A DNA stretch of 40,000 nucleotides from Solirubrobacterales bacterium (GCA_033856275.1 JAWVFJ010000016.1:51656-91655); one strand, 5' to 3'. Shown: positions 11,723 to 27,986, counted from the first letter of the stretch. Translations and numbers: made by a program. Notes: generated from the sequence alone by a model not told the origin.

Positions 11723-12943
11723 GTGATCGACGTCGACACCTCTTCTTTCTTCGCGATCGTCCTCGTCGCGGCGATCGCCGCGACCCTCGTCGCGATCGCG
11801 CCGAAGGGGATGGCGCCCCCCGTCGTGGTTCTGGAGCTGCTCCTGGGGATCCTGATCGGGCCGCAGGTGCTCGACCTCGCCCAACCCTCCGATTTCATCG
11901 AATTCTTCTCCAACCTCGGGCTCGGCATGCTCTTCTACTTCGCCGGCTACGAGATCGACTTCGAACGGATCAAGGGGGCGCCACTGAAGCTGGGCGCACT
12001 CGGCTGGGCCCTCTCGGTGGCTCTGGCCTACGGCATCGGCGGCATCCTCGCGGCTGCCGGCATCGTCGTCTCCTTCCTCTACACGGGCTCGGCATTGGCG
12101 ACGACCGCGATCGGAACGCTGATCCCGATCCTCAAGGACAACGGTGGCTTGAAGACGCGCTTTGGCACCTACCTGCTGGCGGCCGGTGGCGCCGGCGAGT
12201 TCGGCCCGATCCTGCTCGTCACGCTCGTCCTCACCACCGCCAGCCCCCTCCACGAGGCGGCGATCCTGGTCGCCTTCGTGGTGCTGGCGCTGGGCGTCGC
12301 GCTGGCCTCGGTGCGCCTCGCCTGGCGCGGCTGGCCGGCCTTCGAAAAGACCTTCGAGGCGAGCAGCCAGCTCGCGGTGCGAATCACCGTCGTTCTCGTC
12401 TTCGGTCTCGTGCTGCTGGCCAGCCAGCTCGGCCTCGACGTCCTGCTCGGCGGCTTCGTCGCCGGCATGATCACCCGCGCCGCCCTGCGCGGCCATGAGT
12501 TGCAGGTCTTCGAGTCGAAGCTCACCGCGGTCGGCTTCGGCTTCTTCGTCCCCTTCTTCTTCATCACCAGCGGCCTCGAGTTCAACCTCGACGCCCTCGG
12601 CTCGGTGGAAGCGATTGCCAAGATGGCCCTCTTCCTCGTTCTCTTCCTCGTCGTCCGCGGCACCCCCGCCCTACTTCTTTACCGCCGCGTCCTCAGCGCC
12701 ACTGAGCGCCGTGCGCTCGCCTTCTTCAGCGCCACCGAGCTCCCCCTCGTGGTGGCGATCACCACCATCGCCATCGACGCCGGCAAGATGCGCACCTCCA
12801 CCGCGGCCGGCCTGGTCGGCGCCGCAATGCTCTCGACCCTGATCTACCCCTTCGTCGGCATGGCGCTGCAGAAGCGAGCCATGGCGGAAGAAGACGATGA
12901 GCCTCCCCCAAGCGAACCCGCCGGGGCCCCGGCCCCCGCCTGA
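11723..12943 (+). CDS. Cation:proton antiporter (CPA2 / Na+/H+ exchanger family)
   Basis: 406-aa polytopic ORF. The N-terminus VVLELLLGILIGPQVLDL...FFSNLGLGMLFYFAGYEIDF and the later FFVPFFFITSGLEFNL are characteristic of the Na_H_Exchanger family. Confidence 0.8.
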   Translation: MIDVDTSSFFAIVLVAAIAATLVAIAPKGMAPPVVVLELLLGILIGPQVLDLAQPSDFIEFFSNLGLGMLFYFAGYEIDFERIKGAPLKLGALGWALSVALAYGIGGILAAAGIVVSFLYTGSALATTAIGTLIPILKDNGGLKTRFGTYLLAAGGAGEFGPILLVTLVLTTASPLHEAAILVAFVVLALGVALASVRLAWRGWPAFEKTFEASSQLAVRITVVLVFGLVLLASQLGLDVLLGGFVAGMITRAALRGHELQVFESKLTAVGFGFFVPFFFITSGLEFNLDALGSVEAIAKMALFLVLFLVVRGTPALLLYRRVLSATERRALAFFSATELPLVVAITTIAIDAGKMRTSTAAGLVGAAMLSTLIYPFVGMALQKRAMAEEDDEPPPSEPAGAPAPA

Positions 12944-12980: not shown

Positions 12981-13052
12981 GGGCGCGTAGCTCAGTGGGA
13001 GAGCGCTCGCCTCACACGCGAGAGGTCGCTGGTTCGAACCCAGCCGCGCCCA
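12981..13052 (+). tRNA. tRNA-Val (anticodon CAC)
   Basis: GGGCGCG TA GCTC AGTGGGA GAGC G CTCGC CTCACAC GCGAG AGGTC GCTGG TTCGAAC CCAGC CGCGCCC A folds as a canonical cloverleaf. The anticodon loop CU-CAC-AC gives anticodon CAC. CCA is not encoded. Confidence 0.95.
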
Positions 13053-13138: not shown

Positions 13139-13396
13139 GTGACTGAATCTGAAAGGAACCTCGTACCGAGCCCGGCCCTGGAGCCCCTGCTCTCGATCGA
13201 GGAGGTATCTGAACTCCTGCGGATCTCGGAGAGCGGGATCTACCGATTGCTGCGGCGAAGCCAGTTGGTGAGCGTCAAGGTCGGTGGCCGCACGCTCTTC
13301 GAGCCCGGCGCGATTCGGGCCTTCATCGCCGCCAGTCGTCGGGCCGGCAGCGCTGAGGGAGGTTCCGACATCCCCGACAACAAGGAGGCGGCATGA
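13139..13396 (+). CDS. Excisionase-family (Xis/AlpA-like) helix-turn-helix DNA-binding protein
   Basis: 85-aa [50 protein letters not shown] matches the excisionase-family HTH pattern. Its stop overlaps the queC ATG (ATGA at 13393..13396). Confidence 0.7.
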
Positions 13397-14097
13397 GCCA
13401 GGCAGAGAAAGCAGTCGTCCTCGTCAGCGGCGGCCTCGATTCCGCTACCGCCCTGGCAATGGCCAGGGACGAAGGCTTCGAGCCGTATGCGATCACGTTC
13501 CGATACGGCCAGCGCCACGGGGTCGAGTTGGAGGCCGCCAAGCGGGTGGTCGCGGCCGCAGGGGTCAGCGATCACATCGAGGTCGAGATCGACCTGCGGC
13601 GAATCGGCGGCTCTGCGTTGACCGCCGACATCGACGTGCCCAAGGGCCGTGACCTGGACGAGATGGCCGACGGCATCCCGATCACCTACGTACCGGCGCG
13701 CAACACGGTCTTCCTCTCCTTCGCGCTCGCCTGGGCCGAGGTGCTGGAGGCGGACCACATCTTCATCGGCGTCAACGCCCTCGACTACAGCGGCTATCCC
13801 GACTGCCGGCCGGAGTACGTCAAAGCCTACGAGCAGATGGCGAACCTGGCCACGAAGCGCGGGGTCGAAGGATCTCCGCTGAGGATCCACACGCCGCTGA
13901 TCGACCTGACCAAGGCGGAGATCGTCCGCCTTGGCACCGCACTGGGGGTCGATTACTCGATCACCCGCAGTTGCTATGACCCCTCCCCCGCGGGTGAGGC
14001 GTGCGGCGAGTGCGACTCCTGCCGGCTTCGGCTCAAGGGCTTTGCCGAGAACGGACTCGCCGATCCCGCCCCCTACCAGCTCGAGGCAGCGGCCTGA
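13393..14097 (+). CDS. queC: 7-cyano-7-deazaguanine (preQ0) synthase
   Basis: 234-aa ORF with the PP-loop [14 protein letters not shown], then FRYGQRH, and the C-terminal Zn cluster [24 protein letters not shown]. Confidence 0.95.
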
Positions 14098-14100
14098 GCG

Positions 14101-14850
14101 ATGGCGCTCCTCGCCGAAAAGCGAACCGAGGTCACCACCTTCCCGGTGATCGAGGTCTTCGGCCCGACGATCCAGGGCGAGGGTGCTGAGGCGGGTTTTC
14201 CCTGCCACTTCGTCAGGTTCGGCGGCTGTGACTACCGCTGCTCGTGGTGCGACACGATGTACGCGGTCGATCCTGATGAGGTTCGCCGCAACTCAAGTCG
14301 GCTGACTACCGCTGAGATCACAGAGCGAATCGAACGACTCGACGGCGCGCCGACCTGGGTCGTGCTCAGCGGCGGAAACCCCGCCCTGCACGAGCTGACC
14401 TCCCTCGTCGATGCCCTCCAGGCCCTCGGTCACAAGGTCGCGGTCGAGACCCAGGGGTCGGTCTGGCGGGACTGGCTTGGCACCGTCGACCGCTTGACGA
14501 TCTCGCCGAAGCCGCCCTCCTCCGGCATGGACAGCGAGGCGCACCGCGAGCAGTTCCAGCGATTCATGGCGAAGGCCGTCGAGAGAGGGGCCGACGGCGC
14601 AATTCTGAAGATCGTCTGCTTCGACGAGGTCGACGTGCGCTGGGCCTCGGATCTCTCGGCCTCCTGGCCGGCCTTCGATCTCTACCTATCGGCCGGAACC
14701 CCCGTCCCGGCTCCGGCCGACCTGCGGCAAGCAGTCACCGACCGCTTTCGCTGGCTCTGCGAGCGGACGGCCGGCGACGAGCGGCTGGCGAATGCGCGGG
14801 TCTTGCCGCAGTTGCATGTGCTCGCCTGGGGCGACGCGAGGGGCGTATGA
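14101..14850 (+). CDS. queE: 7-carboxy-7-deazaguanine synthase (radical SAM)
   Basis: 249-aa [43 protein letters not shown] carries the QueE CxxxCxxC-type cluster region. It sits between queC and queD. Confidence 0.9.
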
Positions 14851-15275
14851 GCGAGATAACCATCATCGACGAGCGCGCCGCACAAGCCGCGGGGGCCGTC
14901 ACGACCCGGGCCGAGATATTCCGTGAGTTCACCTTCGAGGCGGCGCACCGGTTGCCCAACGTACCTGAGGGACACAAGTGTGCACGCCTGCATGGTCACT
15001 CCTATCGGGTCGAGGTGAGGGTCAACGGTCAAGTCGGCGAGCAGACCGGTTGGGTCGTCGACTTTGCCGATATCAGCGCTGCTTTCAAGCCGATTCACGC
15101 AGAACTCGACCACCACTATCTGAACGAGGTGCCGGGCCTCGAGAATCCGACCAGCGAGGTCCTTGCCTGCTGGATCTGGGAGCGGTTGGCACCAAGCCTT
15201 TCCGGGCTCGCCGAGATAGTGGTGCGCGAGACCTGCACTTCGGGATGCTCGTACCGGGGGGTGACCGAAGCATGA
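14847..15275 (+). CDS. queD: 6-carboxy-5,6,7,8-tetrahydropterin synthase
   Basis: 142-aa ORF with [28 protein letters not shown] and WVVDFADI (the PTPS/QueD His triad region). It has ATGA overlaps at both ends. Confidence 0.9.
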
Positions 15276-16096
15276 ATCCCGCCGAGCAACTCGCCGCTCT
15301 CGGCGTCGAAGACGTGCAGGCGACGCGAGACGAGCGCGGTGTGCTCATCGACGAAGTGGGCATCGACGGGCTCTCATACCCGATCGCCGTGGAAGGTCGC
15401 GACGGCGACCGCCAGCAAACCGCGGCCGAGGTGAGCATGGCGGTGGAACTCGCCCACGATTCGCGTGGCGTTCACATGAGCCGCTTCGTCGAAGTGCTCG
15501 ATGCCCATGCCGCCGGCATGGGTCCCGATGGTTTTCGCGAGATGGTCAAGGCGACTCGGTACCGGCTCGGATCCGACTTCGCTCGGGTGAAGTTGGGCTT
15601 TCCGTACTTCCTGCGCCGCCGAGCGCCGACCAGCGAAATGCCCTCGATGGTCCGCTACGAGTGCACGCTCACCGGCGAATCGCGCGGCGAGGAGATCGCG
15701 ACCGAGGTCGGTGTACGGGTTGCCGTGACCAGCCTTTGTCCCTGCAGCAAGGAGATCAGCGACTACGGCGCCCACAACCAGCGTGGCTATGTCGAGATCT
15801 CCGCGACAAGCCCCTGGTCCGGTGGCGAAGCGTCCGGCATCTGGTTCGAGGACCTGGTCGACGTCGCCGAGGCGGCGGCGTCGGCGCCGATCTATCCCCT
15901 GCTCAAGCGCAGCGACGAGCGCACGGTGACGATGCAGGCCTACGACAAGCCCGCCTTTGTGGAGGACATCGTCAGGGACATCGTTGTGGCCTTGCGCACC
16001 GACGTTCGGGTTGCCAAAGCGCGCGTCCGCGCCTCCAACCAGGAGAGCATCCACGACCACAACGCGGTCGCCCAACTGCAGTGGGAGCGCCGGTGA
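15272..16096 (+). CDS. folE2: GTP cyclohydrolase I type 2 (FolE2/MptA family)
   Basis: From ATG 15272: ...[17 protein letters not shown]...[16 protein letters not shown]...[27 protein letters not shown]... These blocks ([20 protein letters not shown]) are typical of FolE2. The track ORF from 14978 is an over-extension overlapping queD. Confidence 0.8.
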
Positions 16097-16755
16097 GCGA
16101 GCGGCGCTCCATCCTGGCGATCACATCCTGCACCGGCCTGAAGACAATCGGGGACGGCGGCGCCAGCCTCCCCGCCGAGCGGCTTTACGCCGGCGAGCAA
16201 CACCGCCGGTTGATGCAGGGCGTCGACTATTTCCGGGCCTCGTCCTCTGGGCATGAACTCGACCTGCGGATCCTCTCGGCCGGTCACGGTGTCGTCGCCG
16301 GCGACCATCGGCTTCGGCACTACGACTCCTCCTTCGCCGCACTGGGCAAGGCGGAGATCGACGAGCGAGCCGCCGAGCTCGGCGTCCCAGGGCAGATCGA
16401 GCAGTTGCTCTCGCGCCCATACGCCCTCGTCCTCGTACTGCTGGGCGACGATTACATGCGCGCTGCCGCGATCGACAGCGACACCCAATTCTCAAGCCCG
16501 ACCATCGTCTTCTGCGGCGAGCGACTTGCCCGACGCTTGCAGGGAGTGCCTTCTCTTAAGCTCGTGCCGGCCGACAAGCGGCAGACACGTCGCTTTGCCT
16601 GTGGCCTCGTCGGCTTGAAGGGGGAGTTGGGGGGACGGCTCTTGCGCCTGCTCGCCGATGATCCCGGCCTCCTCCCCAAGGTTTCCGACCCCGGACTCGA
16701 CCTGCTCGCCATGCTCGACGCGGCAAGCGTCCGCCCACTCGGGGCCGCCGCGTGA
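16093..16755 (+). CDS. Hypothetical protein coupled between folE2 and dpdA; weak YaaA/DUF328-like pattern, possible DpdC-type accessory enzyme (tentative)
   Basis: The GTG at 16093 overlaps the folE2 stop (GTGA) and its own stop overlaps the dpdA GTG (16752). The 220-aa product is [17 protein letters not shown]...PAERLYAGEQHRRL...LRILSAGHGVVAGDHRLRHYDSSF. The LRILS-G-G...L..Y block recalls YaaA/DUF328. This is by-eye resemblance only. Confidence 0.5.
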   Translation: MSERRSILAITSCTGLKTIGDGGASLPAERLYAGEQHRRLMQGVDYFRASSSGHELDLRILSAGHGVVAGDHRLRHYDSSFAALGKAEIDERAAELGVPGQIEQLLSRPYALVLVLLGDDYMRAAAIDSDTQFSSPTIVFCGERLARRLQGVPSLKLVPADKRQTRRFACGLVGLKGELGGRLLRLLADDPGLLPKVSDPGLDLLAMLDAASVRPLGAAA

Positions 16756-17984
16756 AGTTCTATTTCCCCGACAGCCAGGATCAGATCGACCCGAGCTTCC
16801 CCTTCGAGAGCGAAGTGCGGTCGCCGCTGCGCGTACGTCAGCGCGACGACCGCTACGCGCACGAGTTCCTCAAGCCCCCGCCCTACGAAGGCCTGCTGGT
16901 CTCCAAGGCGATGATCGACGGCAACGGAGGGGCCGGTCGCTACAGCGCCCAGCAGCGGCAGCGCTTCTTCCGCGAAGGCGTCAGGGAGTTCTTTCGCCTC
17001 GACCAGTCGGCCGGACCGCGCATCGAGACTCTGGGTGACTGCGGCGCCTTCGGCTACATCGACGAGCCGCTGCCGCCGTACAGCACCGACCAGGTGATCG
17101 ACTTCTACGAGCAGGCCCGCTTCGACGCCGGCGTCTCAGTCGACCACGTGATCCCGGTCTTCGACGACGACGTGGATTCCTCCTGGAAGGACCGCTACAC
17201 GTTGACGTTGGGTCTGGCTGAGGAGTTCCTCGACCGCCACCGTGAGCGGGACTGCCGGTTCGAACCCGTAGGCGTGGCCCAGGGCTGGAGCGCGGCCACC
17301 TACGCCAACGCGGTGGGGCACCTGCAGAAACTGGGCTACGAGCGAATCGCGATCGGCGGCCTCGTCCCGCTCAAGACCGATGAGATCCTCCGCGTCCTGG
17401 CGGCGATAGACGAGATTCGCCATCCCCATACGAAACTCCACCTGTTTGGGGTGACCCGCTGTGAGCACGTTCCCCGCTTCAAGGGCCACGGCGTGACCAG
17501 CTTCGACAGTACCTCGCCGTTTCGGCGCGCTTTCAAAGACGGCACGGACAACTACTACGTGCTCGATCGCGCCTTCGTCGCCCTGCGCGTGCCGCAGGTC
17601 GAGGGCAACGCGAAGCTGCAGGCGCGAATCGGCGCGGGAGAGATCGACCAGGGGAAAGCTCGCAAGCTCGAGCAGGAGGCCCTGGCCGCGCTGCGCGCTT
17701 TCGACCGCGGCAAGGAAAGCCTCGAGAAAGCCCTGGAAAAGCTCTGCGACTACCAGGACCTCCACGACGAAGGACACGCCCGGCACGAGCAGTACCGTGA
17801 AACGCTCGCCGACGCACCTTGGCGCGAATGCAAATGCAATGTCTGCAGCAGCGCCGGCATCGAGGTTGTCCTCTTCCGGGGCAGTGAGCGCAACAAGCGG
17901 CGGGGCTTCCACAACCTCCACGTATTCGCTCAGCGCCTCGCACAGGAACTACAGCCCCAAGACACCGCGCTCGCAGCGGCATAA
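16752..17984 (+). CDS. dpdA: DpdA-type tRNA-guanine-transglycosylase paralog (7-deazaguanine DNA transglycosylase)
   Basis: 410-aa ORF with N-terminus MKFYFPDSQDQIDPSFPF and TIM-barrel TGT-like blocks (GDCGAFGY, IAIGGLVPLK, LHLFGV). The TGT zinc motif CKCNVC...HNLH is present. It is embedded in a preQ0 biosynthesis operon next to a DGQHR protein. Confidence 0.85.
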   Translation: MKFYFPDSQDQIDPSFPFESEVRSPLRVRQRDDRYAHEFLKPPPYEGLLVSKAMIDGNGGAGRYSAQQRQRFFREGVREFFRLDQSAGPRIETLGDCGAFGYIDEPLPPYSTDQVIDFYEQARFDAGVSVDHVIPVFDDDVDSSWKDRYTLTLGLAEEFLDRHRERDCRFEPVGVAQGWSAATYANAVGHLQKLGYERIAIGGLVPLKTDEILRVLAAIDEIRHPHTKLHLFGVTRCEHVPRFKGHGVTSFDSTSPFRRAFKDGTDNYYVLDRAFVALRVPQVEGNAKLQARIGAGEIDQGKARKLEQEALAALRAFDRGKESLEKALEKLCDYQDLHDEGHARHEQYRETLADAPWRECKCNVCSSAGIEVVLFRGSERNKRRGFHNLHVFAQRLAQELQPQDTALAAA

Positions 17985-17993
17985 GGAGAAGAA

Positions 17994-19130
17994 GTGGCCA
18001 AATACGAGATGCGCGTCCCAGCTCTGGCCGTCCGGCAGGGAGAGAGGTTGCTCTACAGCTTCGCGATCGACGGCAAGACGTTGCCGCTGTTCACGACGGT
18101 CTCCCGCGTTCACCGCGACGAGGATCGCAAGCTGGGCGGTTACCAGCGGCCGGAGGCCCTCGCCCACATCGCGGCGATCAAGCGCTACCTCGAGACCGCC
18201 GATGCGGTGCTGCCCAACGCGCTCGTCATCGCCTTCGACGGGCGTGTCAAGTTCAAGAAGAGCCCGGGCGGTGGCGGTGGTGTCACCACGCAGGGCGAAA
18301 TCGTCATCCCCGTGGACGAGAAGCTCGCCGACGAGGACAAGCCGGGCTGGATTGTCGATGGCCAGCAGCGCTCGGCGGCGATCCGCGAAGCGAACGTCGA
18401 GGGATTCCCCGTCTTCGTCACTGCGTTCGTCACCGACAGCGTCGAGGAGCAACGCTCGCAGTTCATCCTGGTCAACTCGACCAAGCCCCTGCCCAAGGGG
18501 TTGATCTATGAGTTGCTGCCGGCGACTCCCGAAGCCGACCTCCCGGTCGCCCTGCTGCGTCGGCGCTATCCCGCCCTCCTGCTGGAGCGACTCAACTTCG
18601 ACGACGACTCGCCGATGCGTTCCCGGATCCGCACCCCAACGACGGCCGGTGGCACGATCAAGGACAACTCGATCCTCAAGATGCTCTCGGCCAGCATCGA
18701 GGACGGCGCGCTCTACCAGTACTTCGACAGCGGGACCGGTAGCGGCGATACAGAGGCGATGCTCGAACTGCTGAAGAACTTCTGGACCGCCGTCGAAGAG
18801 TGCTTCCCAGACGAGTGGGAGGAGTCGCCCCGGCGCTCCCGCCTCGTCCACGGCGTCGGCATCGCCAGCCTGGGCTGCCTGATGGACGAGATCACCTATG
18901 TGAGCGGCCCGGGACGCGTCCCCACCAGCGACGAGTTCGCCGAGGAGCTGCGGCTGATCAAAGGTCAGTGCCACTGGACGAAAGGCAACTGGAAGTTTGC
19001 CGGCGGCGACAGTTGCGCCTGGAACGAACTGCAGAACACGCCCAAAGACATCCTCCGCCTCAGCGACCACCTGCTGCGCCTGTATCGAGAGGCTCGGGGA
19101 TCGACCGAAGAGCAACGTCAGGCTGCCTGA
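17994..19130 (+). CDS. dpdB: DGQHR-domain (DndB-like, ParB superfamily) protein, DpdB-type
   Basis: GTG start preceded by AAGGAG (17983..17988). 378-aa ORF: ALAVRQGERLLYSFAIDGKTL...LGGYQRPEALAHIAAIKRYLE...LPNALVIAF...GWIVDGQQRSAAI...SQFILVNSTKPL, the DGQHR/DndB architecture. Confidence 0.8.
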   Translation: MAKYEMRVPALAVRQGERLLYSFAIDGKTLPLFTTVSRVHRDEDRKLGGYQRPEALAHIAAIKRYLETADAVLPNALVIAFDGRVKFKKSPGGGGGVTTQGEIVIPVDEKLADEDKPGWIVDGQQRSAAIREANVEGFPVFVTAFVTDSVEEQRSQFILVNSTKPLPKGLIYELLPATPEADLPVALLRRRYPALLLERLNFDDDSPMRSRIRTPTTAGGTIKDNSILKMLSASIEDGALYQYFDSGTGSGDTEAMLELLKNFWTAVEECFPDEWEESPRRSRLVHGVGIASLGCLMDEITYVSGPGRVPTSDEFAEELRLIKGQCHWTKGNWKFAGGDSCAWNELQNTPKDILRLSDHLLRLYREARGSTEEQRQAA

Positions 19131-19149: not shown

Positions 19150-19491
19150 GTGAACCGATCCGAAGCGAACGAGTCTCTCCGTGCCCTGCACAAACGAGCG
19201 CATGCCGAGCTCCAACAGCTCAAGGACCGCCAGCACCGCCTTGAGCGCCTGATCGAGTTCATCGACGAGTACGGGGCGGGGAAACCCAAGCGCGCGCGGA
19301 AGAGACGACAGGTAAGAGCGAGGTCGCCTTCGCTGCTCGAGGTGATCGGCGACCGGCCTGGCGTGCGCAAGAGCATGCTCGCGATGGTCATGGACCGCTC
19401 GCCGGAGGAGGTTGGCGCGGAACTCGAATACCTAGAGCGAGAAGGCAGCATCCGCCGCGACGGATTGGGGTGGTCAAGGGCCGACCAATAG
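19150..19491 (+). CDS. Small coiled-coil plus winged-helix-like protein (start uncertain)
   Basis: Read in the track ORF frame (18997..19491) from the first start after the dpdB stop, GTG 19150. Sequence: VNRSEANESLRALHKRAHAELQQLKDRQHRLERLIEF...SLLEVIGDRPGVRKSMLAMVMDRSPEEVGAELEYLEREGSIRRDG, which looks like a MarR/ArsR-style wHTH. No obvious SD. Confidence 0.45.
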   Translation: MNRSEANESLRALHKRAHAELQQLKDRQHRLERLIEFIDEYGAGKPKRARKRRQVRARSPSLLEVIGDRPGVRKSMLAMVMDRSPEEVGAELEYLEREGSIRRDGLGWSRADQ

Positions 19492-19563
19492 CGGCGTAGC
19501 CATTGTTTTGGATCGTGCCTATCTATGTGCTATTTTTTTGGCACACGGATAGAAGGAGGCGCG

Positions 19564-20823
19564 ATGTCAACCCATCTCGAAGAGCACAAAGCCGTTCCCC
19601 TCGAGGCCCTTTTCCTCGACGCGAACAACCCTCGCCTGGCGCCGGAGAATCCGCCGGGATACGAAGATGCCGACGCCCTCTTCGATCCCGAGGTTCAAAA
19701 GGAACTGCAGGAGCGGGCCAAGGAGTCGTTCGATCTCGACAGCCTCGAGGCGGCAATGGTCGGTCAGGGATGGCTGCCGATCGATTCGATCCTGGTATGG
19801 GAGCACCCTGACGAACCGGGAAAGTTCGTCGTGGTCGAGGGCAACCGCAGACTGGCGACGTTGCGGCTGCGCATTCTGCCGCGTCTCGCCAAAGCCAAAA
19901 CCAAGCTGGAAAAAATGGGGGGAGGCGGCCGGAGCAAGCGCTACACGGCAGGCGACGTGGAGCAGCAAGAAGCGGAAATCGCCCGGCTCGAGCGCCTGCA
20001 GGACGAAACCGATCCGCTGGCGGTCCTGAAGGTCACGGCCGCCACGCCGACGGAGCTCGACCAGACCCTGAACCGCATCCTCGCCGTGCGCCACATCACC
20101 GGCCCCAAGGAATGGGGTAACTACGCGGAGGACATCTGGCTACTGCGGCGCTACCGCGACCTCTTCGACCGGCGATTCCCCGGGGAGCAGCTGCGCTGGG
20201 AGCCGTCGACGATCGGTCAGGTGGCGGACGAGGCTTCCCTGTCTCCGGTCATGACCAAGCGCCATCTGCGGGCGGCGAGCGCGTTTGGACGCTTCCGCGA
20301 CGACTTCGAAGATGACCTGCCCAACGAAGAAAGCTTCGAAGAGGGCGACTACTACCTCTTCGAGCTGATCGCGCAGCAGCCGTTCGCACGCGAGAAGTTC
20401 GGCCTCGGCGAGGATCTCCTGGGCCTGCCCGAGGACAAGGCGCAGATCCTCTTCGACTGGGTCTTCAAGGAGCCCCGGCCCCAGAAGGCCGCCGACAACC
20501 CAAACGTCTTCTACCGCCACGAGAACATCAGGCTCTGGGGCCAGATGAAGAAATACGACGAGAGCAACGGCACCACGTTCGCCGATCGCTTCGACGTCAC
20601 CGATCACAAGAACGCGCCGTCGATGCACTCGGTCGAGGCCGACTTCCACTCCCACAAGGCCCGCAAGACCCCGATCGACGTCCTCGACTCCCTCCTCACT
20701 CAGCTCAAAGAACTGGATGCGGAGACGATGATGGCCGAGGGCGAGTTCCTCCACAAGCAGCTGGAAATGCTCGAGACGCGAATCGAGAAGCTGCTGCGGA
20801 TGGTCGAGGCGGCGGAAGGCTGA
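19564..20823 (+). CDS. ParB/Srx N-terminal-domain protein (second ParB-like protein of the island)
   Basis: ATG 19564 lies 5 nt after a strong SD GAAGGAGG (19552..19559), following an AT-rich gap. Sequence: MSTHLEEHKAVPLEALFLDANNPRL...FVVVEGNRRLATLRL (ParB-type GxRR box), then about 300 aa with no recognisable domain. The track start at 19525 is likely an over-extension. Confidence 0.65.
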   Translation: MSTHLEEHKAVPLEALFLDANNPRLAPENPPGYEDADALFDPEVQKELQERAKESFDLDSLEAAMVGQGWLPIDSILVWEHPDEPGKFVVVEGNRRLATLRLRILPRLAKAKTKLEKMGGGGRSKRYTAGDVEQQEAEIARLERLQDETDPLAVLKVTAATPTELDQTLNRILAVRHITGPKEWGNYAEDIWLLRRYRDLFDRRFPGEQLRWEPSTIGQVADEASLSPVMTKRHLRAASAFGRFRDDFEDDLPNEESFEEGDYYLFELIAQQPFAREKFGLGEDLLGLPEDKAQILFDWVFKEPRPQKAADNPNVFYRHENIRLWGQMKKYDESNGTTFADRFDVTDHKNAPSMHSVEADFHSHKARKTPIDVLDSLLTQLKELDAETMMAEGEFLHKQLEMLETRIEKLLRMVEAAEG

Positions 20824-20826
20824 CGG

Positions 20827-23229
20827 ATGGTCCGGCGCCGTATCGACGACCCTGAGATCCGCCCGCTGATCGACCGCTTGGCGACCCTCTTCCTCCGCGA
20901 GGGAAGCGTCAACCGGGTGCAGCAACTGTTGGTGGCGCAGCTCGCCGACGACAGGAGCGAGGGATACGTCCACTCCAACCGGCTGCACGCTCTGCTCAGC
21001 GAGGACCCGGCGAAGTCCGTCAACCCGAGCACTCTCCGCACCATCGAGACCGCGGTCGAGCGGCTCGACCCCGAGGGGGAGGGGAGCATCCCGGCATCCG
21101 CCGCAGCGTTGAAGGACGAGGTGGCGGGCCGCTGGCCTGGGACGGTGGCCAGCGTGCCGGGCGGAACCTCCGCGGAGCGAATCCGCCATCTTGCCGCGGA
21201 GATCAACGTCCCGCCGGGGGTCGTCAGCCTGCTGCTCGACGCCGGCACCGCCGATGCCGGCGACCGTTCTGCCGCTCGCCGAGACACCACGATCGCAACC
21301 GTTCGCAGCCCGGATTGGTCATTCCAGGACACCGCCTACGAGCGCTGTGTGAGGGCCCTTGCCGGCGGTCCGAATGAAAAGGTCGGCCTGGTCCTACCCA
21401 CTGGCGGCGGCAAGACCCGGCTGGCCATTCGCATCATGCTCCAGGTGCTCGACCGAGCCGAGTCCGAGAACCCCGTCGTTGTCTGGGTGACGCATCGTAA
21501 GCAGCTTCGAACCCAGGCCACGCGCGAGCTCCAACGCGCGATCAACCTGGGAACTCCGGACCTACCGGCTCACGCTACGGCTCTGCTGGCGGGCCAGGTC
21601 GAGATCTGCATGGTCTCGAAGCTCGCCGAGACGCTGGATCGTCACGCCGGACGGGTGGCGCTGGTCGTCGTCGACGAGGCCCACCACGCCGCGGCCGAGT
21701 CGTATAGGCCGATCTTCGACCGGACTCCGCAGCGGGGGCTCTTCCTCACGGCGACCCCCAACCGGACCGACTCGATGCCGATCGGCGTCGACCAGATCGC
21801 CTATGCGACTACCTACCGCGATCTGTTCGACAGAGGGGTGATCGTCGAGCCCGTCCTCGACGAGCTGACCATCGACGGATTCGACTGGAATCTGGCCGAG
21901 CGGGTCGAGGAGCTCGCCGCCTATCTTCTCGACGAGGCGGGCGACCGTTTCCTGAAGACCCTGGTCGTCGTCTCGCGGGTTGAGAACGCCGAGCGCCTCC
22001 ACGAGGCCCTCCTCCGACTGCTCTCCTCCGACCATGTCTTGAACGAGGAGGACATCGGGTTCGCGCACGGCAGCGGCAGTTCGACCGGCCAGGGCATCCA
22101 GGACTTCCTCGACGAGTTCCAGGCACGCCCGCGCGGGATCTTGATCGCAACCAGCCAACTACTGGGAGAGGGCTTCGACGATCCGAGTGTCGACAGCACA
22201 GTCATCACCTACCCCACGCAGAGCGTTCTCGACCTGATGCAGGTCGCCGGGCGCTGCATGAGGTACGCCCCGGGCAAGCACAAGGCTTTCGTCGTCCAAG
22301 TGCGAGATTCCGCGCTCACGTACCACTGGGAGCAGGGATGGCTCTACCAGGACATTTCCGACGCGCTCCGCCCGCGCCTCGAAACCGTGCCCTTTACCGG
22401 CGGCAGGGATCTGGAAACCACCATCGCGGACATCCTTACCTCCCACAACGTCTCGCGGCCGGTGCGCAAAGCGGCGCTCGAGGCCGCGTCGAACCTCGAC
22501 GTCAACGACCGATTCTCATTGCTCCTCACGGGCCTTCCCTACGGGGGTCCCGCTGACCGATTCGACGTCGACGCCCAGTGGGGGGCCGTTTTCGTGACCC
22601 CCGAGGAGCGCGATCTGTTCGTGCGGGTGTTCAACGGCTATTCGGAGCGTTACACCGAGATCAACGACAAGAAGGCGTTTCTCGAGCAGTACATCTCGGT
22701 CGACCACCAGCCCGGTAGCCGCTGGCGCCGGTACATGGACATGCTCGCGGCCATGGAGGCAGCCGGAACCGAACGCCGCGGTGAAACTTTTGCCCTCGCC
22801 TCATCGCGGCCGAACAACACGGAGACTGGAACGACATGGCTTACATACATCACCTTCGTCTACGAACCGGCCCTGCCGATCGATCTCGAGGCCTTTCTGG
22901 CAGACGCCGTCAACCGCAAGGAAGTTGCCGACATGTTTCTCGACGATCCCACTGCATGGAGCCTCGCGGTGAAGGCGCCCCTGCCGCTGGACGGCAGCCT
23001 TGCCGCGCTTGTCTCCGACGCCGGGGCCGATTGGGTCGAGCGGGAACGCAAAGCACTCAGAAGCCATCTGGGGTCTGCGGACCAGCGCCAGACCTTCGGT
23101 GCGCTGGCAGCCTGGCGGACGGAACTCGACGGCGAATCCCCTCTGCCTCAATTCATGCTCGACCGCTTCGAGTTGCTGCTTGCCGACGAGGGATGGACGC
23201 ACTTCGCGCTTTCGTTGGACAATTCTTAG
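20827..23229 (+). CDS. DEAH-box SF2 helicase (ResIII + Helicase_C core) with unassigned N- and C-terminal domains
   Basis: 800-aa ORF with motif I LVLPTGGGKTRLA, motif II VVDEAHHAAA, motif III LTATPNR, and motifs V/VI ILIATSQLLGEGFDDP and QVAGRCMR. The roughly 170-aa N-terminal and roughly 300-aa C-terminal regions are unrecognised. It starts 4 nt after the ParB-like stop. Confidence 0.8.
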   Translation: MVRRRIDDPEIRPLIDRLATLFLREGSVNRVQQLLVAQLADDRSEGYVHSNRLHALLSEDPAKSVNPSTLRTIETAVERLDPEGEGSIPASAAALKDEVAGRWPGTVASVPGGTSAERIRHLAAEINVPPGVVSLLLDAGTADAGDRSAARRDTTIATVRSPDWSFQDTAYERCVRALAGGPNEKVGLVLPTGGGKTRLAIRIMLQVLDRAESENPVVVWVTHRKQLRTQATRELQRAINLGTPDLPAHATALLAGQVEICMVSKLAETLDRHAGRVALVVVDEAHHAAAESYRPIFDRTPQRGLFLTATPNRTDSMPIGVDQIAYATTYRDLFDRGVIVEPVLDELTIDGFDWNLAERVEELAAYLLDEAGDRFLKTLVVVSRVENAERLHEALLRLLSSDHVLNEEDIGFAHGSGSSTGQGIQDFLDEFQARPRGILIATSQLLGEGFDDPSVDSTVITYPTQSVLDLMQVAGRCMRYAPGKHKAFVVQVRDSALTYHWEQGWLYQDISDALRPRLETVPFTGGRDLETTIADILTSHNVSRPVRKAALEAASNLDVNDRFSLLLTGLPYGGPADRFDVDAQWGAVFVTPEERDLFVRVFNGYSERYTEINDKKAFLEQYISVDHQPGSRWRRYMDMLAAMEAAGTERRGETFALASSRPNNTETGTTWLTYITFVYEPALPIDLEAFLADAVNRKEVADMFLDDPTAWSLAVKAPLPLDGSLAALVSDAGADWVERERKALRSHLGSADQRQTFGALAAWRTELDGESPLPQFMLDRFELLLADEGWTHFALSLDNS

Positions 23230-23443
23230 GTCTGGCGGGTATTCGCGAGGCTCCATCCAGCCGGGTCCCGTCCTGATTGAACTTCCGGATCAGGATTCGC
23301 CCTCGCCAAGCCGGGTTCGCCGGCCCGTGCGAAATGCCTATTTGCATCGAGTGCGTAGGGTTCCACGATTTAAAATGCAACGCTTAAGCGGGTAATTAAG
23401 TGTTTCTATCCTTAGTACGGCTCTTTAATGGTAGCTTCGGCAA

Positions 23444-24454
23444 GTGGGTCTCTTCCGCAAGGACCGAGAGGCGCGTTCAAAGACCAAGGTGCCGGCACCG
23501 AACTCGGTGGACGCCGACAGGCAGAAGCATGAAGACGCGGCCGCTGCGCCTCTTCCGGCTCAGCTCCTTTGGCTCATCGATGCGCCGATGTTCATCGACG
23601 AGCACCGGGTCGAGGCTTTCTACGACGCCATTCTTCGACCCGACTTCGAAGGCGCCAGCCTGACGCTCTCCGAGTCGCTGACCAAAGGCCGAACCTTCAG
23701 TGGCGGTATGACGGTGGGCGCGGCGTTGCCATGGCTGGTCAAAGCGGAGGGAAAGGCAGAAGCGGCAAGCAGCAGGCAGAAGGCGCGCGGTCAGGAGGCG
23801 ACGCTGCACCGCGTGATCAATCCCTACCGCCATCTACTCGCCCTCGCGATTCACTACGCGACCCAGCAAGAGTTTCAGCACCGACTCGTCTTCGCCCAAC
23901 CCACCACAGCGAAAGACGCCGCCGCAACTGACGTCTCATCGACCTGGACAACGGATTCCTTCAGCCGCGAGTCGCCCCGGGCGATCGTGGTCCTGGACCT
24001 GCCAGAGGGGACACCATTGATTCCACTGGCGGCCGAGACCACGGAGGGCAAGGTCGTGCCGGTGTACAAGCAACTTGCCGCGCGCCTGCAGAGGCCGGGA
24101 CAGCGAGCATTGCCCGAGTTCGTCAGGCGTGACAAGCCCAACTACCTGCAGGGCCAGCGCGACTACTGGCGTTGGTTCGCCGAGTTCTTCGATCCCCAAG
24201 TGGCGATTGAGGTCGTCGAGGAGGCTTCGGAGTCCGGTCGGTTTGCTTGGATCGCCTTTAGGCTTCCGGTCGGGTCCGTCGACCCCCTCCAGGCTGAGAC
24301 GTTTCTCCATCTCCACATCTCACCGCGAGGGGAATACGACACCGGGGTCGTCGCCTACAACTTCATCGCGCGCGGTTACGAGCACGGCGTGAGGATCGTT
24401 GGAACATTGAAGTCCGATCCCGACCTCAACGTCCTCGCCGTGTTCGAGCGCTAG
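23444..24454 (+). CDS. Hypothetical protein (no recognisable domain)
   Basis: 336-aa ORF (GTG start; alternative ATG at 23588) after a visibly AT-rich 200-bp gap. G/C-rich third codon positions support coding. No motif recognised by eye. Confidence 0.5.
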   Translation: MGLFRKDREARSKTKVPAPNSVDADRQKHEDAAAAPLPAQLLWLIDAPMFIDEHRVEAFYDAILRPDFEGASLTLSESLTKGRTFSGGMTVGAALPWLVKAEGKAEAASSRQKARGQEATLHRVINPYRHLLALAIHYATQQEFQHRLVFAQPTTAKDAAATDVSSTWTTDSFSRESPRAIVVLDLPEGTPLIPLAAETTEGKVVPVYKQLAARLQRPGQRALPEFVRRDKPNYLQGQRDYWRWFAEFFDPQVAIEVVEEASESGRFAWIAFRLPVGSVDPLQAETFLHLHISPRGEYDTGVVAYNFIARGYEHGVRIVGTLKSDPDLNVLAVFER

Positions 24455-25567: not shown

Positions 25568-25954
25568 CTAGCCCGCTGGCTGCTGCAGCACCGAGAGAAT
25601 GTTGCCGGCCGGGTCCTTGAACCAAGCGATCGAGGGGCCGGGACCGCGGGCAATGCCCTTCTCGTCCTGCTCGAAGCCCTCATAGCGCTCGCAGGCGATC
25701 CCCTTGGCGGCGAGCTCGTCGACGGCGGCGTCGATGTCGTCGACCTCGAAGTTGAGGATCGTGTAGGTGGCCGGGACGAAGTCGGACTTGGCGTAGAGCA
25801 GGGTGTCGCGGCCACCGGCCAGCTGGATCGAGGCGACGCCGTGCTCCTCGCTCAGCACGGTGACCCCGAGGCCCAGCGCCTCGCCGTAGAACCGCTTCGC
25901 CGCATCGATCTCGTCGACGGCGAAGCCGTTGGTCGCTTTCGTGTTCGCGAACAT
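25568..25954 (-). CDS. VOC-family (glyoxalase/bleomycin-resistance fold) protein
   Basis: 128-aa ORF. FAVDEIDAAKRFYGEALGL...ILNFEVDDIDAAVDELAAKG...AWFKDPAGNILSVLQ is the typical paired beta-alpha-beta-beta-beta pattern. Confidence 0.8.
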   Translation of the reverse strand: MFANTKATNGFAVDEIDAAKRFYGEALGLGVTVLSEEHGVASIQLAGGRDTLLYAKSDFVPATYTILNFEVDDIDAAVDELAAKGIACERYEGFEQDEKGIARGPGPSIAWFKDPAGNILSVLQQPAG

Positions 25955-26733: not shown

Positions 26734-27017
26734 CTCGTCGGCGATAGGGCGTCGACCTTCTCAGCCAGTTCGAAGTCGGCGCCGGTGAGGCCGCCCTCGG
26801 AATGGGTGGAAATCGTCACCGTCACCGTGTCCCAGGAGATCTCGACGTCGGGATGGTGGCCCATCGCCTCAGCCGGCTCGACCAGACTCGAAACGAACTT
26901 GACCGAGCCGACGAAATCGCCGCAGCCGAAGCGCTTCGAAATCGCTTTGCCCTGGAGCTCCCAGCCATCTCGCTGGGCCAGCTTCGCCTCGATCTCTTCA
27001 TCGCTCAGCAGTGCCAT
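26730..27017 (-). CDS. phhB: Pterin-4-alpha-carbinolamine dehydratase
   Basis: 95-aa ORF. LSDEEIEAKLAQRDGWELQGKAISKRF...AEAMGHHPDVEISWDTVTVTISTHSEGGLT is the PCD/DCoH signature (HHP...W). Confidence 0.85.
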   Translation of the reverse strand: MALLSDEEIEAKLAQRDGWELQGKAISKRFGCGDFVGSVKFVSSLVEPAEAMGHHPDVEISWDTVTVTISTHSEGGLTGADFELAEKVDALSPTS

Positions 27018-27203
27018 CTACGCGACCCCATCGCTTTCTGGGCCCGTTTGCGGCGCGCGATCCGAGCACGCCGTAGGCCTCGAATTTCTGGTCAGTGTAG
27101 AGCTGGTCGATCGTCGGATTGTTGGGAAAGCGTGGTCGGCTCCCATGGTGCGGTGCTCGCTTCAGATCGTCACTCGATTCAACTAAGCTGCTCGAAGCGA
27201 GCG

Positions 27204-27986
27204 ATGCCCAGCTCCACTCCCATCCTTTGGCACATCACTGTCTCGCACTACAGCGAGAAGGCGCGCTGGGCGCTCGACCACAAGCAGATGCCGCACAGGC
27301 GCCGCGCGGTCTCGATCCCCGGCCTTCACATCCCGGCCTCGATGCTGCTCACGCGCGGCGCCAGCCACACCTTTCCGGTGCTCGAACTCGAGGGACGGGC
27401 GATCGGCGACTCGACCGAGATCATCGCCGCGCTGGAGGAGCGCCATCCGGAGCGGCCGCTCTACCCGGCCGATCCCGAGCAGCGCCATCGCGCGCTCGAG
27501 CTGGAGGACTTCTTCGATGAGGAACTGGGGCCCCACCTCCGCCTGCTCGCCTTCCATGAGTTGGGCAAGGACCCAGAGCGCTTCGAGGCGGTGATCGCAC
27601 GCTCCACGCCCGGCCCCGTCGCGAGCCTCGGCAGCGGCGCAGTCACCTACGCCCGCACCTACACCGGCCTGCGCTTCGGCGTTCGCAGCGAGGAGGCCGC
27701 CGAAGTCGCCCGCGGCAAGATCCTGGCGGCGATGGACCGCCTCGACGCCGAGATCGGCCCAAGCGGATACCTGGTCGGCGACTCCTTCAGCGTCGCCGAC
27801 CTCACTGCCGCGGCCCTCTTCTACCCGCTGGTCCTCCCCAACGAGGGGCCGCTGACCGTAGATGAACCGCCCCCAGCCGGAATGGAGAGCTTCCGCGCGC
27901 CGCTGCGGGATCGCCCTGGCTACCGCTGGGTCGAGGAGATGTTCCGCCGGCATCGCAGACCGGGCGCGATCGCAGTGGCTGCCTAG
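27204..27986 (+). CDS. Glutathione S-transferase family protein
   Basis: From ATG 27204: MPSSTPILWHITVSHYSEKARWALDHK...FPVLELEGRAIGDSTEIIAALEERHPERPLYP, a thioredoxin-like GST N-domain, followed by a helical C-domain. The track ORF from 26802 is an over-extension. Confidence 0.75.
   Translation: MPSSTPILWHITVSHYSEKARWALDHKQMPHRRRAVSIPGLHIPASMLLTRGASHTFPVLELEGRAIGDSTEIIAALEERHPERPLYPADPEQRHRALELEDFFDEELGPHLRLLAFHELGKDPERFEAVIARSTPGPVASLGSGAVTYARTYTGLRFGVRSEEAAEVARGKILAAMDRLDAEIGPSGYLVGDSFSVADLTAAALFYPLVLPNEGPLTVDEPPPAGMESFRAPLRDRPGYRWVEEMFRRHRRPGAIAVAA

Follow-up and report, generated by a model that had tools for sequence, protein, structure and literature searches.

A ParB/KorB-like protein and a superfamily 2 helicase form a two-gene cassette recurrently associated with 7-deazaguanine DNA modification genes

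The stretch of DNA analyzed here, hereafter called the window, comprises 40,000 nucleotides from a Solirubrobacterales bacterium (GCA_033856275.1, JAWVFJ010000016.1:51656-91655). Within this sequence, which has a guanine-plus-cytosine (GC) content of 67%, a plus-strand gene array is found at ~13.1-25.5 kb. It carries the 7-deazaguanine DNA modification genes dpdA and dpdB together with genes for preQ0 synthesis, and downstream of these a gene pair encoding a ParB-like protein and a superfamily 2 (SF2) helicase. We find that this pair is a fixed two-gene cassette with a wide but patchy association with modification genes, and we discuss its possible role as an effector arm of a Dpd variant. The island is composed of the following features, where ORF stands for open reading frame and aa for amino acids.

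13139-19130, plus strand: modification module with HTH_17, queC, queE, queD, folE2, a short DUF6884 (DpdC-like) gene, dpdA and dpdB
13139-13396, plus strand: HTH_17 gene, which opens the island
16093-16755, plus strand: short DUF6884/DpdC-like ORF of ~220 aa (DUF6884 at 25.8 bits, below the cut-off of 30; PADLOC DpdC E 2e-4)
16752-17984, plus strand: DpdA (NF041059 E 2e-166, 553 bits against a cut-off of 200; PADLOC DpdA E 1e-168)
17994-19130, plus strand: DpdB (NF041060 E 6e-141, 469 bits against a cut-off of 300)
19150-19491, plus strand: small ORF of 113 aa with a GTG start, an N-terminal coiled-coil-like region and a C-terminal winged helix-turn-helix (wHTH)-like region
19527-19544, plus strand: AT-rich element of 18 nt, GTGCTATTTTTTTGGCAC, inside a 72-bp gap, defined by an alignment of the window, L020 and L022
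19564-20823, plus strand: ParB/KorB-like NTPase-fold protein of 419 aa; a ParB/Srx domain at the N-terminus is followed by a helical, DNA-binding-like domain in the center and by long helices at the C-terminus
20827-23229, plus strand: SF2 (ResIII/DEAH) helicase of 800 aa, core at residues ~167-490 (ResIII E 4e-16 and Helicase_C E 3e-6, together covering residues 167-480)
23444-24454, plus strand: orphan-family protein of 336 aa
24455-25510, minus strand: Q_salvage/DUF2419 (Qng1-like) protein of 351 aa (PF10343 E 5e-13, 49.6 bits against a cut-off of 25)

With DpdA and DpdB both well above their family cut-offs, the modification half makes this locus a Dpd island. The genes up to and including dpdB are tightly coupled, with gaps of -4 to +9 nt. 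As a first-pass annotation of this DNA had described, the pattern breaks past dpdB, where spacers of 19 nt (between the end of dpdB at 19130 and the 113-aa ORF at 19150), 72 bp and 214 bp follow. The same annotation had grouped the small ORF, the ParB-like gene, the helicase gene and the 336-aa gene into one candidate effector module, in which the ParB-like/helicase pair, possibly with the 336-aa protein, would read deazaguanine status. All four ORFs are indeed present where it had placed them, and the distance between the ParB-like and the helicase gene has to be corrected from 4 to 3 nt (stop codon at 20823, ATG at 20827). Since all four are conserved as proteins in other loci, none of them is an ORF that a GC-rich genome produced by chance. 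The modification module is syntenic as a whole in L001, L020 and L022 (fetched loci are numbered with an L throughout). DpdD-K gave no PADLOC or Pfam match among the four genes and their neighbors or among the larger ORFs further downstream in the window, and tblastn with the Mesorhizobium DpdD/K/J/I/H proteins likewise returned no match in the window or in the syntenic loci.

The ParB-like protein belongs to a family of at least 310 homologues, all annotated as hypothetical, with a uniform length of ~418 aa and 45-50% identity. They occur in Actinomycetota, Bacteroidota, Verrucomicrobia, one delta-proteobacterial metagenome-assembled genome and Sericytochromatia. Pfam and NCBIfam contain no family that matches the protein, and a profile search of the PDB was empty as well. 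The protein carries the VVVEGNRRLATLR motif, and in 104 aligned sequences D19, N22-P23-R24 and E92-G93-N94-x-R96 are invariant, with N21 nearly so. An AlphaFold2 model was obtained with a predicted local distance difference test score (pLDDT) of 92.9 and a predicted template modelling score of 0.78. In a Foldseek search of the PDB its best match was KorB of RK2 (8qa9/8qa8, E 2.5e-4, prob 1.0), followed by CTP-bound Caulobacter ParB (7bm8/6t1f) and Spo0J (1vz0), with no other significant match. The region matched comprises the nucleoside triphosphate (NTP)-binding N-domain and the DNA-binding domain of these CTPase clamps. The alignments to KorB and to ParB lacking its C-terminal domain span 266-334 columns, but with target-normalised template modelling scores of 0.47-0.56 and root-mean-square deviations of 7-10 A. 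Family searches gave no sequence-level helix-turn-helix match for the central domain, and the remainder of the model is predicted to be all-alpha with long C-terminal helices. The invariant NTP-motif residues and the fold match thus bear out the ParB N-domain assignment of the first-pass annotation. The analogy it had drawn to DndB, the DUF262 domain and DpdB was not supported. Because KorB, ParB and Spo0J are the only significant PDB matches and similarity to DpdB was not detectable, the modelled structure places the protein with the ParB/KorB type and not with the DndB/DUF262/DpdB type.

With the ParB/KorB CTPase clamps of ParABS and of RK2 KorB-KorA, the protein shares the predicted fold of the NTP-binding N-domain, with a looser match of the helical domain that follows, and the conserved NPxxPR and GxRR motifs, and its long C-terminal helices could serve in dimerization. 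It differs from them by a long helical hairpin after the GxRR motif and by an extra conserved helical region at residues ~250-350. Moreover, the ParB-like gene has no ParA/KorA partner or partition context but is always paired with a helicase gene; a ParA-like neighbor was not seen in any locus inspected. ParB/Srx N-domains are also found in other DNA-modification-related conflict systems (SspE, GmrSD/BrxU of the DUF262-DUF1524 type, DndB, DpdB, PD-Lambda-5_A). However, our protein is not of the DGQHR/DUF262 subfamily and is fused neither to DUF1524/HNH nor to a methyltransferase. We rejected the idea that it is a DpdB paralogue, because there is no detectable similarity. PADLOC matches are confined to its first ~100 residues (PD-Lambda-5_A and PDC-M38A). 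PD-lambda-5 is a compact system combining restriction-modification and abortive infection, with a methyltransferase (PMC9519451). Membership in it was rejected as well, since only residues 8-114 match positions 4-99 of the 466-position profile, and PD-Lambda-5_B had no match.

The helicase is full-length in 13 aligned loci. The SF2 assignment made earlier stands on the ResIII match and on the motifs. The window protein carries VVDEAHH. Across 14 orthologues the motif I core PTxxGKT, DEAHH, TATP and QVAGR do not vary, while G193 is only nearly invariant. Motifs I, II (DEAH), III and VI are thus essentially invariant, which points to an intact motor. The closest profiles of the core are those of restriction and repair helicases (ResIII, EcoAI HsdR, mREase_IV, PbeA), and the nearest solved cores are RadD (6jde), 7clg, HsdR (3h1t) and XPB. 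The N-terminal region (residues 1-165) and the C-terminal region (~495-800) are conserved among the orthologues; neither matched a Pfam family even at E<=10. The C-terminal 306 aa used as a homologue query returned only three fragments and were uninformative. Identity with DpdE/F/J was rejected, as the DpdE model scored 23.8 bits against a cut-off of 500. PbeA is a fusion of an HKD nuclease and a helicase (PMC10853773); this identity was rejected too, because the HKD domain is absent.

The first-pass annotation had found no canonical nuclease motif by eye, and family searches of both proteins agree. Pfam, NCBIfam and PADLOC revealed no nuclease domain in the ParB-like protein or the helicase, and a fold search, done for the ParB-like protein only, was likewise negative. 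In the model, the C-terminal region of the ParB-like protein has neither a beta-beta-alpha-metal nor a PD-(D/E)xK topology. No nuclease family was detected in 14 helicase orthologues at E<=1, nor in the isolated termini at E<=10, and the termini of these orthologues contain no invariant Asp/Glu/Lys or His cluster. Like the motors of DndFGH, PbeA, SauUSI-type type IV enzymes and type I HsdR, the helicase is of the ResIII type and adjoins a modification module. In contrast to them, it has no fused HKD/phospholipase D (PLD), PD-(D/E)xK or HNH domain, its termini match nothing, and where those systems have DndF/G or a methyltransferase, it has a ParB-fold protein as its obligate partner.

To survey the pair, contigs from one genome per species and metagenome contigs of the Joint Genome Institute were scanned with the ParB-like alignment as query, i.e. 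blind to dpd genes, and each fetched locus was then searched by tblastn with all twelve island proteins. In the window and in all 24 unique loci with downstream sequence, the helicase gene lies 3' of the ParB-like gene in the same orientation; the distance usually ranges from a few nt to a few tens of nt. Loci with the adjacent pair span Actinomycetota, Bacteroidota, Verrucomicrobia and Proteobacteria. Hence, the ParB-like gene and the helicase gene are a fixed two-gene cassette, and its presence across several phyla at 40-50% identity argues for horizontal spread. Pair orthologues were absent from the phage genome collection, and IMG/VR contained only distant ParB N-domain relatives. A phage origin of the pair was therefore rejected.

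The first-pass annotation had made its proposal depend on conserved linkage to dpdA/dpdB. Such linkage was indeed seen: deazaguanine-related genes accompany the cassette in 13 of the 25 informative loci on which the linkage frequency rests. Twelve of them contain que genes and/or dpdA/dpdB (L014, L018, L027, L029, L034, L035, L036, L037, L042, L045, L051, L053), and in L038 the only such company is a pair of 336-aa and Q_salvage genes. The arrangement varies among the linked loci. queC lies divergently 0.3-0.6 kb upstream of the pair or 0.3-0.6 kb downstream of the helicase gene, or dpdA is located 137 bp upstream, and the modification module is found on either strand relative to the pair, locus by locus. 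In a neighbor-joining tree built from the ParB-like proteins, loci with and without this linkage are interleaved. Together, the varied arrangement and the interleaved tree indicate a recurrent association and not one inherited synteny block. As in the window, DpdD/K/J/I/H are absent from the linked loci, with the exception of one weak DpdD-like fragment in L018.

The cassette is also found next to a different modification system. On the conjugative Ti plasmid pTiAF3.44 of Agrobacterium larrymoorei (L057, NZ_CP072169.1 382139-403143), a full-length pair in swapped order (helicase 36% and ParB-like protein 38% identical) is flanked by an HNH gene, accompanied by one for a 566-aa hypothetical protein, and by dndEDCB/dndA; dndFGH are not found within 10 kb of the pair. 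The dnd genes on this plasmid are a second, chemically unrelated modification module to which the pair has docked. Stand-alone copies occur in diverse surroundings: beside a cyclic oligonucleotide-based antiphage signaling system (CBASS; L010), in a defense island of M. asiaticum (L025) with an N6-methyltransferase, UvrD+PDDEXK genes, a HEPN/DUF3320 gene and a ScoMcrA-like enzyme, next to an integrase fragment in Micromonospora (L024), and in ordinary chromosomal context (L008, L026).

Nuclease genes accompany the pair in some of these loci. Two genes, one for a UvrD-like helicase and one for a PD-(D/E)xK (PDDEXK_1) nuclease, are contiguous and co-oriented with the pair in at least four loci (L013/L025 5097-8662, L029 6645-9961, L042 13609-17111, L046 3639-6726), in dpd-linked and unlinked loci alike, and may serve the system as a nuclease module that is optional. 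UvrD without PDDEXK was found in L050 and at the end of L037. The dpd-less loci share no conserved third gene beyond the occasional UvrD/PDDEXK. In the closest relatives, a ~505-aa GHKL (HATPase_c) gene directly follows the helicase gene (L020 13680-15203, plus strand; L022 13642-15159, minus strand). At this position the window has only the 214-bp gap (23230-23443, 54% GC), so this accessory gene was either lost here or gained there. None of these partner genes of other loci (UvrD+PD-(D/E)xK, HNH, GHKL) is present in the window.

The 336-aa protein belongs elsewhere. It was said to have no recognizable motif, and indeed Pfam, NCBIfam, PADLOC, PHROGs and PDB sequences gave no match. For this family, 82 close homologues were retrieved, together with 492 cluster representatives at E<=1e-3, of which the best 150 are ~150-415 aa long, none long enough to suggest a large-domain fusion. 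Its AlphaFold2 model (pLDDT 84.3) has no significant neighbor in the PDB or BFVD (best E 0.12-0.18), and shows weak, recurrent OB-fold-like sub-matches. Directly convergent with it, 0 nt apart and beyond the region covered by the first-pass annotation, lies the Q_salvage gene. The N-terminal half of its product is homologous to DUF2419 queuine/queuosine salvage enzymes in the PDB (7u5a/7u07/7ulc, E 9e-9), as expected for the Qng1/DUF2419 enzymes. In contrast to these, it is encoded in a DNA-modification island beside an orphan 300-340-aa protein. Q_salvage is the immediate neighbor of the 336-aa gene in 10 of 12 unique loci, usually convergent at 0-15 nt and in tandem in L005 and L054. Besides the window, such neighbors were noted in L003, L005, L020, L022, L038, L054, L055 and L056.

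The contexts of this second pair are varied. The 336-aa gene lies beside canonical DpdD/DpdK/DpdJ clusters in L002 and L003, where the ParB-like/helicase pair is missing; together with Q_salvage it adjoins dpdA/B/C and que modules in L005 and L054 and a dpd module with HNH and DndB-like genes in L055, and in L056 the two genes stand alone on a conjugative element with a TrwC relaxase and a type IV coupling protein. Thus, the proposed trio of ParB-like protein, helicase and 336-aa protein is not supported, as the 336-aa gene segregates with Q_salvage and also occurs without the pair. Varied contexts with Q_salvage as the usual neighbor indicate that the 336-aa and DUF2419 genes are a unit of their own, tied to deazaguanine modification in general and not to the helicase. 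Because the DUF2419 partner is homologous to Qng1-type queuosine-5'-phosphate hydrolases, the most economical guess is that this pair salvages or sanitizes 7-deazaguanine bases or nucleotides that DNA has released, and does not serve in restriction. Its occurrence in Dpd islands of canonical and non-canonical type, and once alone on a conjugative element, suggests a unit for DNA that is dedicated to salvage, sanitation or excision of 7-deazaguanine.

The best explanation of the island is that two independent two-gene units are docked onto a module of dpdA/dpdB and preQ0-synthesis genes that lacks DpdD-K. The ParB-like/helicase pair probably substitutes for the restriction genes that are lacking. 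With the Dpd system of the Salmonella Montevideo type, the window shares DpdA, DpdB, queC/D/E with folE2 and a DUF6884/DpdC-like gene in one operon, adjoined by a helicase-containing set. It differs in having no DpdD-K (neither DpdD nor the PLD nuclease DpdK, and no helicases of the DpdE/F/J type); in their place stand the ParB/KorB-like protein and an SF2 helicase of 800 aa that is unrelated to them. The window's DpdC-like protein is also short (220 aa) and below family cut-offs. Islands with dpdAB and no restriction operon have been described as a sizeable class for which a substitute was not named (GATOR-GC preprint, PMC11888242). We found no description of the pair, or of the DUF2419/orphan pair in Dpd islands, in surveys of Dpd, Dnd, bacteriophage exclusion (BREX) and ParB-fold systems, and PADLOC 2.0 has no model for the ParB-like/helicase pair. 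New here are therefore a putative non-canonical, portable effector cassette on a Dpd-type modification system and a separate DUF2419/orphan pair.

We give about even chances to the reading that the ParB-like/helicase pair is a portable, modification-coupled effector arm, restriction-like in nature, which forms a Dpd variant. It draws on the intact, co-oriented pair in every locus with room for it, on its spread over several phyla and its recurrence beside modification modules of two chemistries, and on the lack of DpdD/K/J/I/H in the linked loci. Further support comes from stand-alone copies in defense contexts (L010, M. asiaticum), the likeness of the helicase core to restriction-type helicases, the KorB/ParB match of the model with its invariant NTP-motif residues, and the UvrD+PDDEXK genes contiguous with the pair. 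In such a system, the ParB-like protein would bind DNA via its central helical domain, and the NTP-binding N-domain with its GxRR motif would act as a switch or clamp, as in ParB/KorB. On DNA without the host mark, the ParB-like protein would recruit or license the translocating helicase. On self DNA, loading could be blocked by the 7-substituent of 2'-deoxy-preQ0 (dPreQ0) or dADG (2'-deoxy-7-amido-7-deazaguanosine), which projects into the major groove where helix-turn-helix readers touch DNA; in the dnd-linked relatives a backbone phosphorothioate might have the same blocking role. Damage to the invader may then result from translocation or from interference with replication, or a separately encoded nuclease may cause it.

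Several observations weigh against this reading, and we do not hold it more firmly because roughly half of the cassettes stand alone. In 12 of the 25 informative loci no que or dpd genes are within reach, and five of these have at least 5 kb of sequence on both sides; the pair is thus either autonomous there or reliant on modification genes elsewhere in the genome. An obligate coupling to deazaguanine is not supported, as about half of the cassettes are solitary and one adjoins dnd genes. Furthermore, a nuclease domain was detected neither in the two proteins nor elsewhere in the window island. Finally, ParB-like proteins can aid DNA-modifying enzymes, as DpdB does (PMC10164549), which would fit a role on the modification side.

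These points feed the competing explanations. The pair might be an autonomous two-gene defense system that ignores host marks, with its proximity to dpd/que and dnd genes reflecting clustering in defense islands and co-transfer. In favor of such a system, modification genes are missing from the vicinity of the pair in about half of the informative loci, some copies lie beside CBASS (L010) or ScoMcrA/HEPN genes (L013/L025) or in the ordinary chromosome (L026, L008), and the pair moves as an intact unit. Clustering of this kind is promiscuous, yet here one specific class of partner, modification modules without restriction genes, recurs in ~50% of the loci across the tree, the arrangements of the partnership differ, often within 0.1-0.6 kb, and the association recurs with dndABCDE. 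The partner dpd islands are, moreover, precisely those without DpdD-K. We regard an autonomous system as the main rival, though a rather unlikely one. Still less probable, in our judgment, is that the pair belongs to the modification side, with clamp and helicase opening or scanning DNA so that DpdA (or Dnd) reaches its sites. DpdB, a ParB-superfamily ATPase, is needed for insertion and a helicase-like role has been discussed for it (PMC10164549); DpdB is present as two or three paralogues in several dpd islands, and the missing nuclease would be no surprise. However, DpdA and DpdB are sufficient in vitro (PMC10164549), the window already has a DpdB to which the pair bears no detectable similarity, the pair is found in many loci that have no modification genes, and also inside defense islands, and PD-(D/E)xK or HNH nucleases accompany it in several loci.

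A single effector operon of all four genes (wHTH, ParB-like, helicase and 336-aa), with the 336-aa protein as the missing nuclease or sensor, is largely refuted by the gene distribution, and we consider it very improbable. The window and L001 share the order of helicase and 336-aa gene, as does L020 with the GHKL gene inserted, and the unassigned fold of the 336-aa protein leaves room for a catalytic role. Against this, the 336-aa gene is missing from all 12 loci of the genome scan and from all but two (L027, L038) of the metagenome scan. In L022/L023 it lies with Q_salvage upstream of HTH_17-queC, at the other end of the island. The 336-aa gene is also found with canonical DpdD/K/J islands and on the conjugative element, where the ParB-like/helicase pair is absent, and it lies 214 bp from the helicase gene in the window, with Q_salvage as its regular neighbor (see above).

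Returning to the modification-coupled effector, a wider version can be put forward only tentatively. The cassette would be a generic, nuclease-free plug-in effector wired to unrelated self-marks (7-deazaguanine in Dpd, phosphorothioate in Dnd), with an NTP-gated ParB/KorB clamp as the modification reader, and the 336-aa and DUF2419 proteins would form a salvage or excision unit for 7-deazaguanine in DNA rather than in tRNA. For the ParB CTPase fold, modification reading would be a previously undescribed use.

To our knowledge, the mechanism of Dpd restriction is still unresolved. The locus and its relatives suggest that a compact cassette of two genes may fill the restriction gap, one that is much simpler than DpdD-K and easily reconstituted. 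If the pair senses modification status, it would offer a tractable model for the reading of 7-deazaguanine marks, add a defense role to the ParB/KorB CTPase-clamp fold and indicate that effector arms can be exchanged across modification chemistries. The 336-aa/DUF2419 pair suggests that salvage enzymes of the queuosine type are linked, in a way not studied so far, to the metabolism of deazaguanine in DNA.

The small ORF upstream of the cassette is conserved as a protein in close relatives only (64% identity in L020/L021, 41% in L022/L023/L027) and evolves faster than the neighboring genes; it was not found 5' of the ParB-like gene in the remaining loci examined. Its earlier description as a wHTH protein survives in part: matches are sub-threshold only, to HVO_A0114 (E 0.0014-0.015, three orthologues) and LexA_DNA_bind (E 0.019). 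It is a candidate lineage-specific accessory or regulator.

The 72-bp gap between this ORF and the ParB-like gene (19492-19563) has a GC content of 50% against 65% for the island. As noted in the first pass, it contains a Shine-Dalgarno sequence, GAAGGAGG, at 19552-19559, 4 nt upstream of the ATG at 19564. The separate promoters proposed at the same time could not be substantiated, since a scan for the sigma-70 consensus gave no hit, and a TTGGAT-17-TATTTT arrangement in the gap is visible by eye only. The 18-nt element GTGCTATTTTTTTGGCAC has short inverted ends, GTGC and GCAC, flanking a T-run, and is kept in the same gap of the two related loci L020 and L022. We consider it a candidate promoter -10 region or operator of the ParB-like/helicase pair, possibly bound by the adjacent wHTH-like protein. 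No riboswitch or other RNA element was found in the AT-rich gaps; the sole RNA is a tRNA-Val left of the island.

Dpd islands in our set differ further in their DpdC and in their effectors. The short ~220-aa DUF6884 form, sub-threshold in Pfam and PADLOC, is present in the window, L001, L014, L020, L022, L035, L042 and L055, and a full DpdC of ~310 aa in L002, L005, L018, L029, L037 and L054. Most islands with full-length DpdC and sufficient sequence have two to three DpdB paralogues. L055 (19373-21032, minus strand) is a restriction-less dpd/que island with HNH and DndB-like genes next to dpdB and neither DpdD-K nor the ParB-like/helicase pair, a hint that the effector sets with which Dpd modification modules combine are several and interchangeable in position.

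The island is bordered by the following features.

11723-12943, plus strand: Na+/H+ exchanger (left flank)
12981-13052, plus strand: tRNA-Val(CAC), 86 bp left of the HTH_17 gene
25568-25954, minus strand, and 26802-27986, plus strand: glyoxalase and glutathione S-transferase (GST) genes (right flank)

The island contains no integrase, and the 3' end of the tRNA gene is not repeated as an att-type direct repeat at the right border at ~25.5 kb. The island of L022/L023 (GCA_900154525.1) is flanked by the same genes, with the Na+/H+ exchanger on the left and glyoxalase and GST on the right. Shared flanks combined with a different internal order, in which the 336-aa/Q_salvage pair is relocated, point to one chromosomal site in this lineage and to rearrangement within the island.

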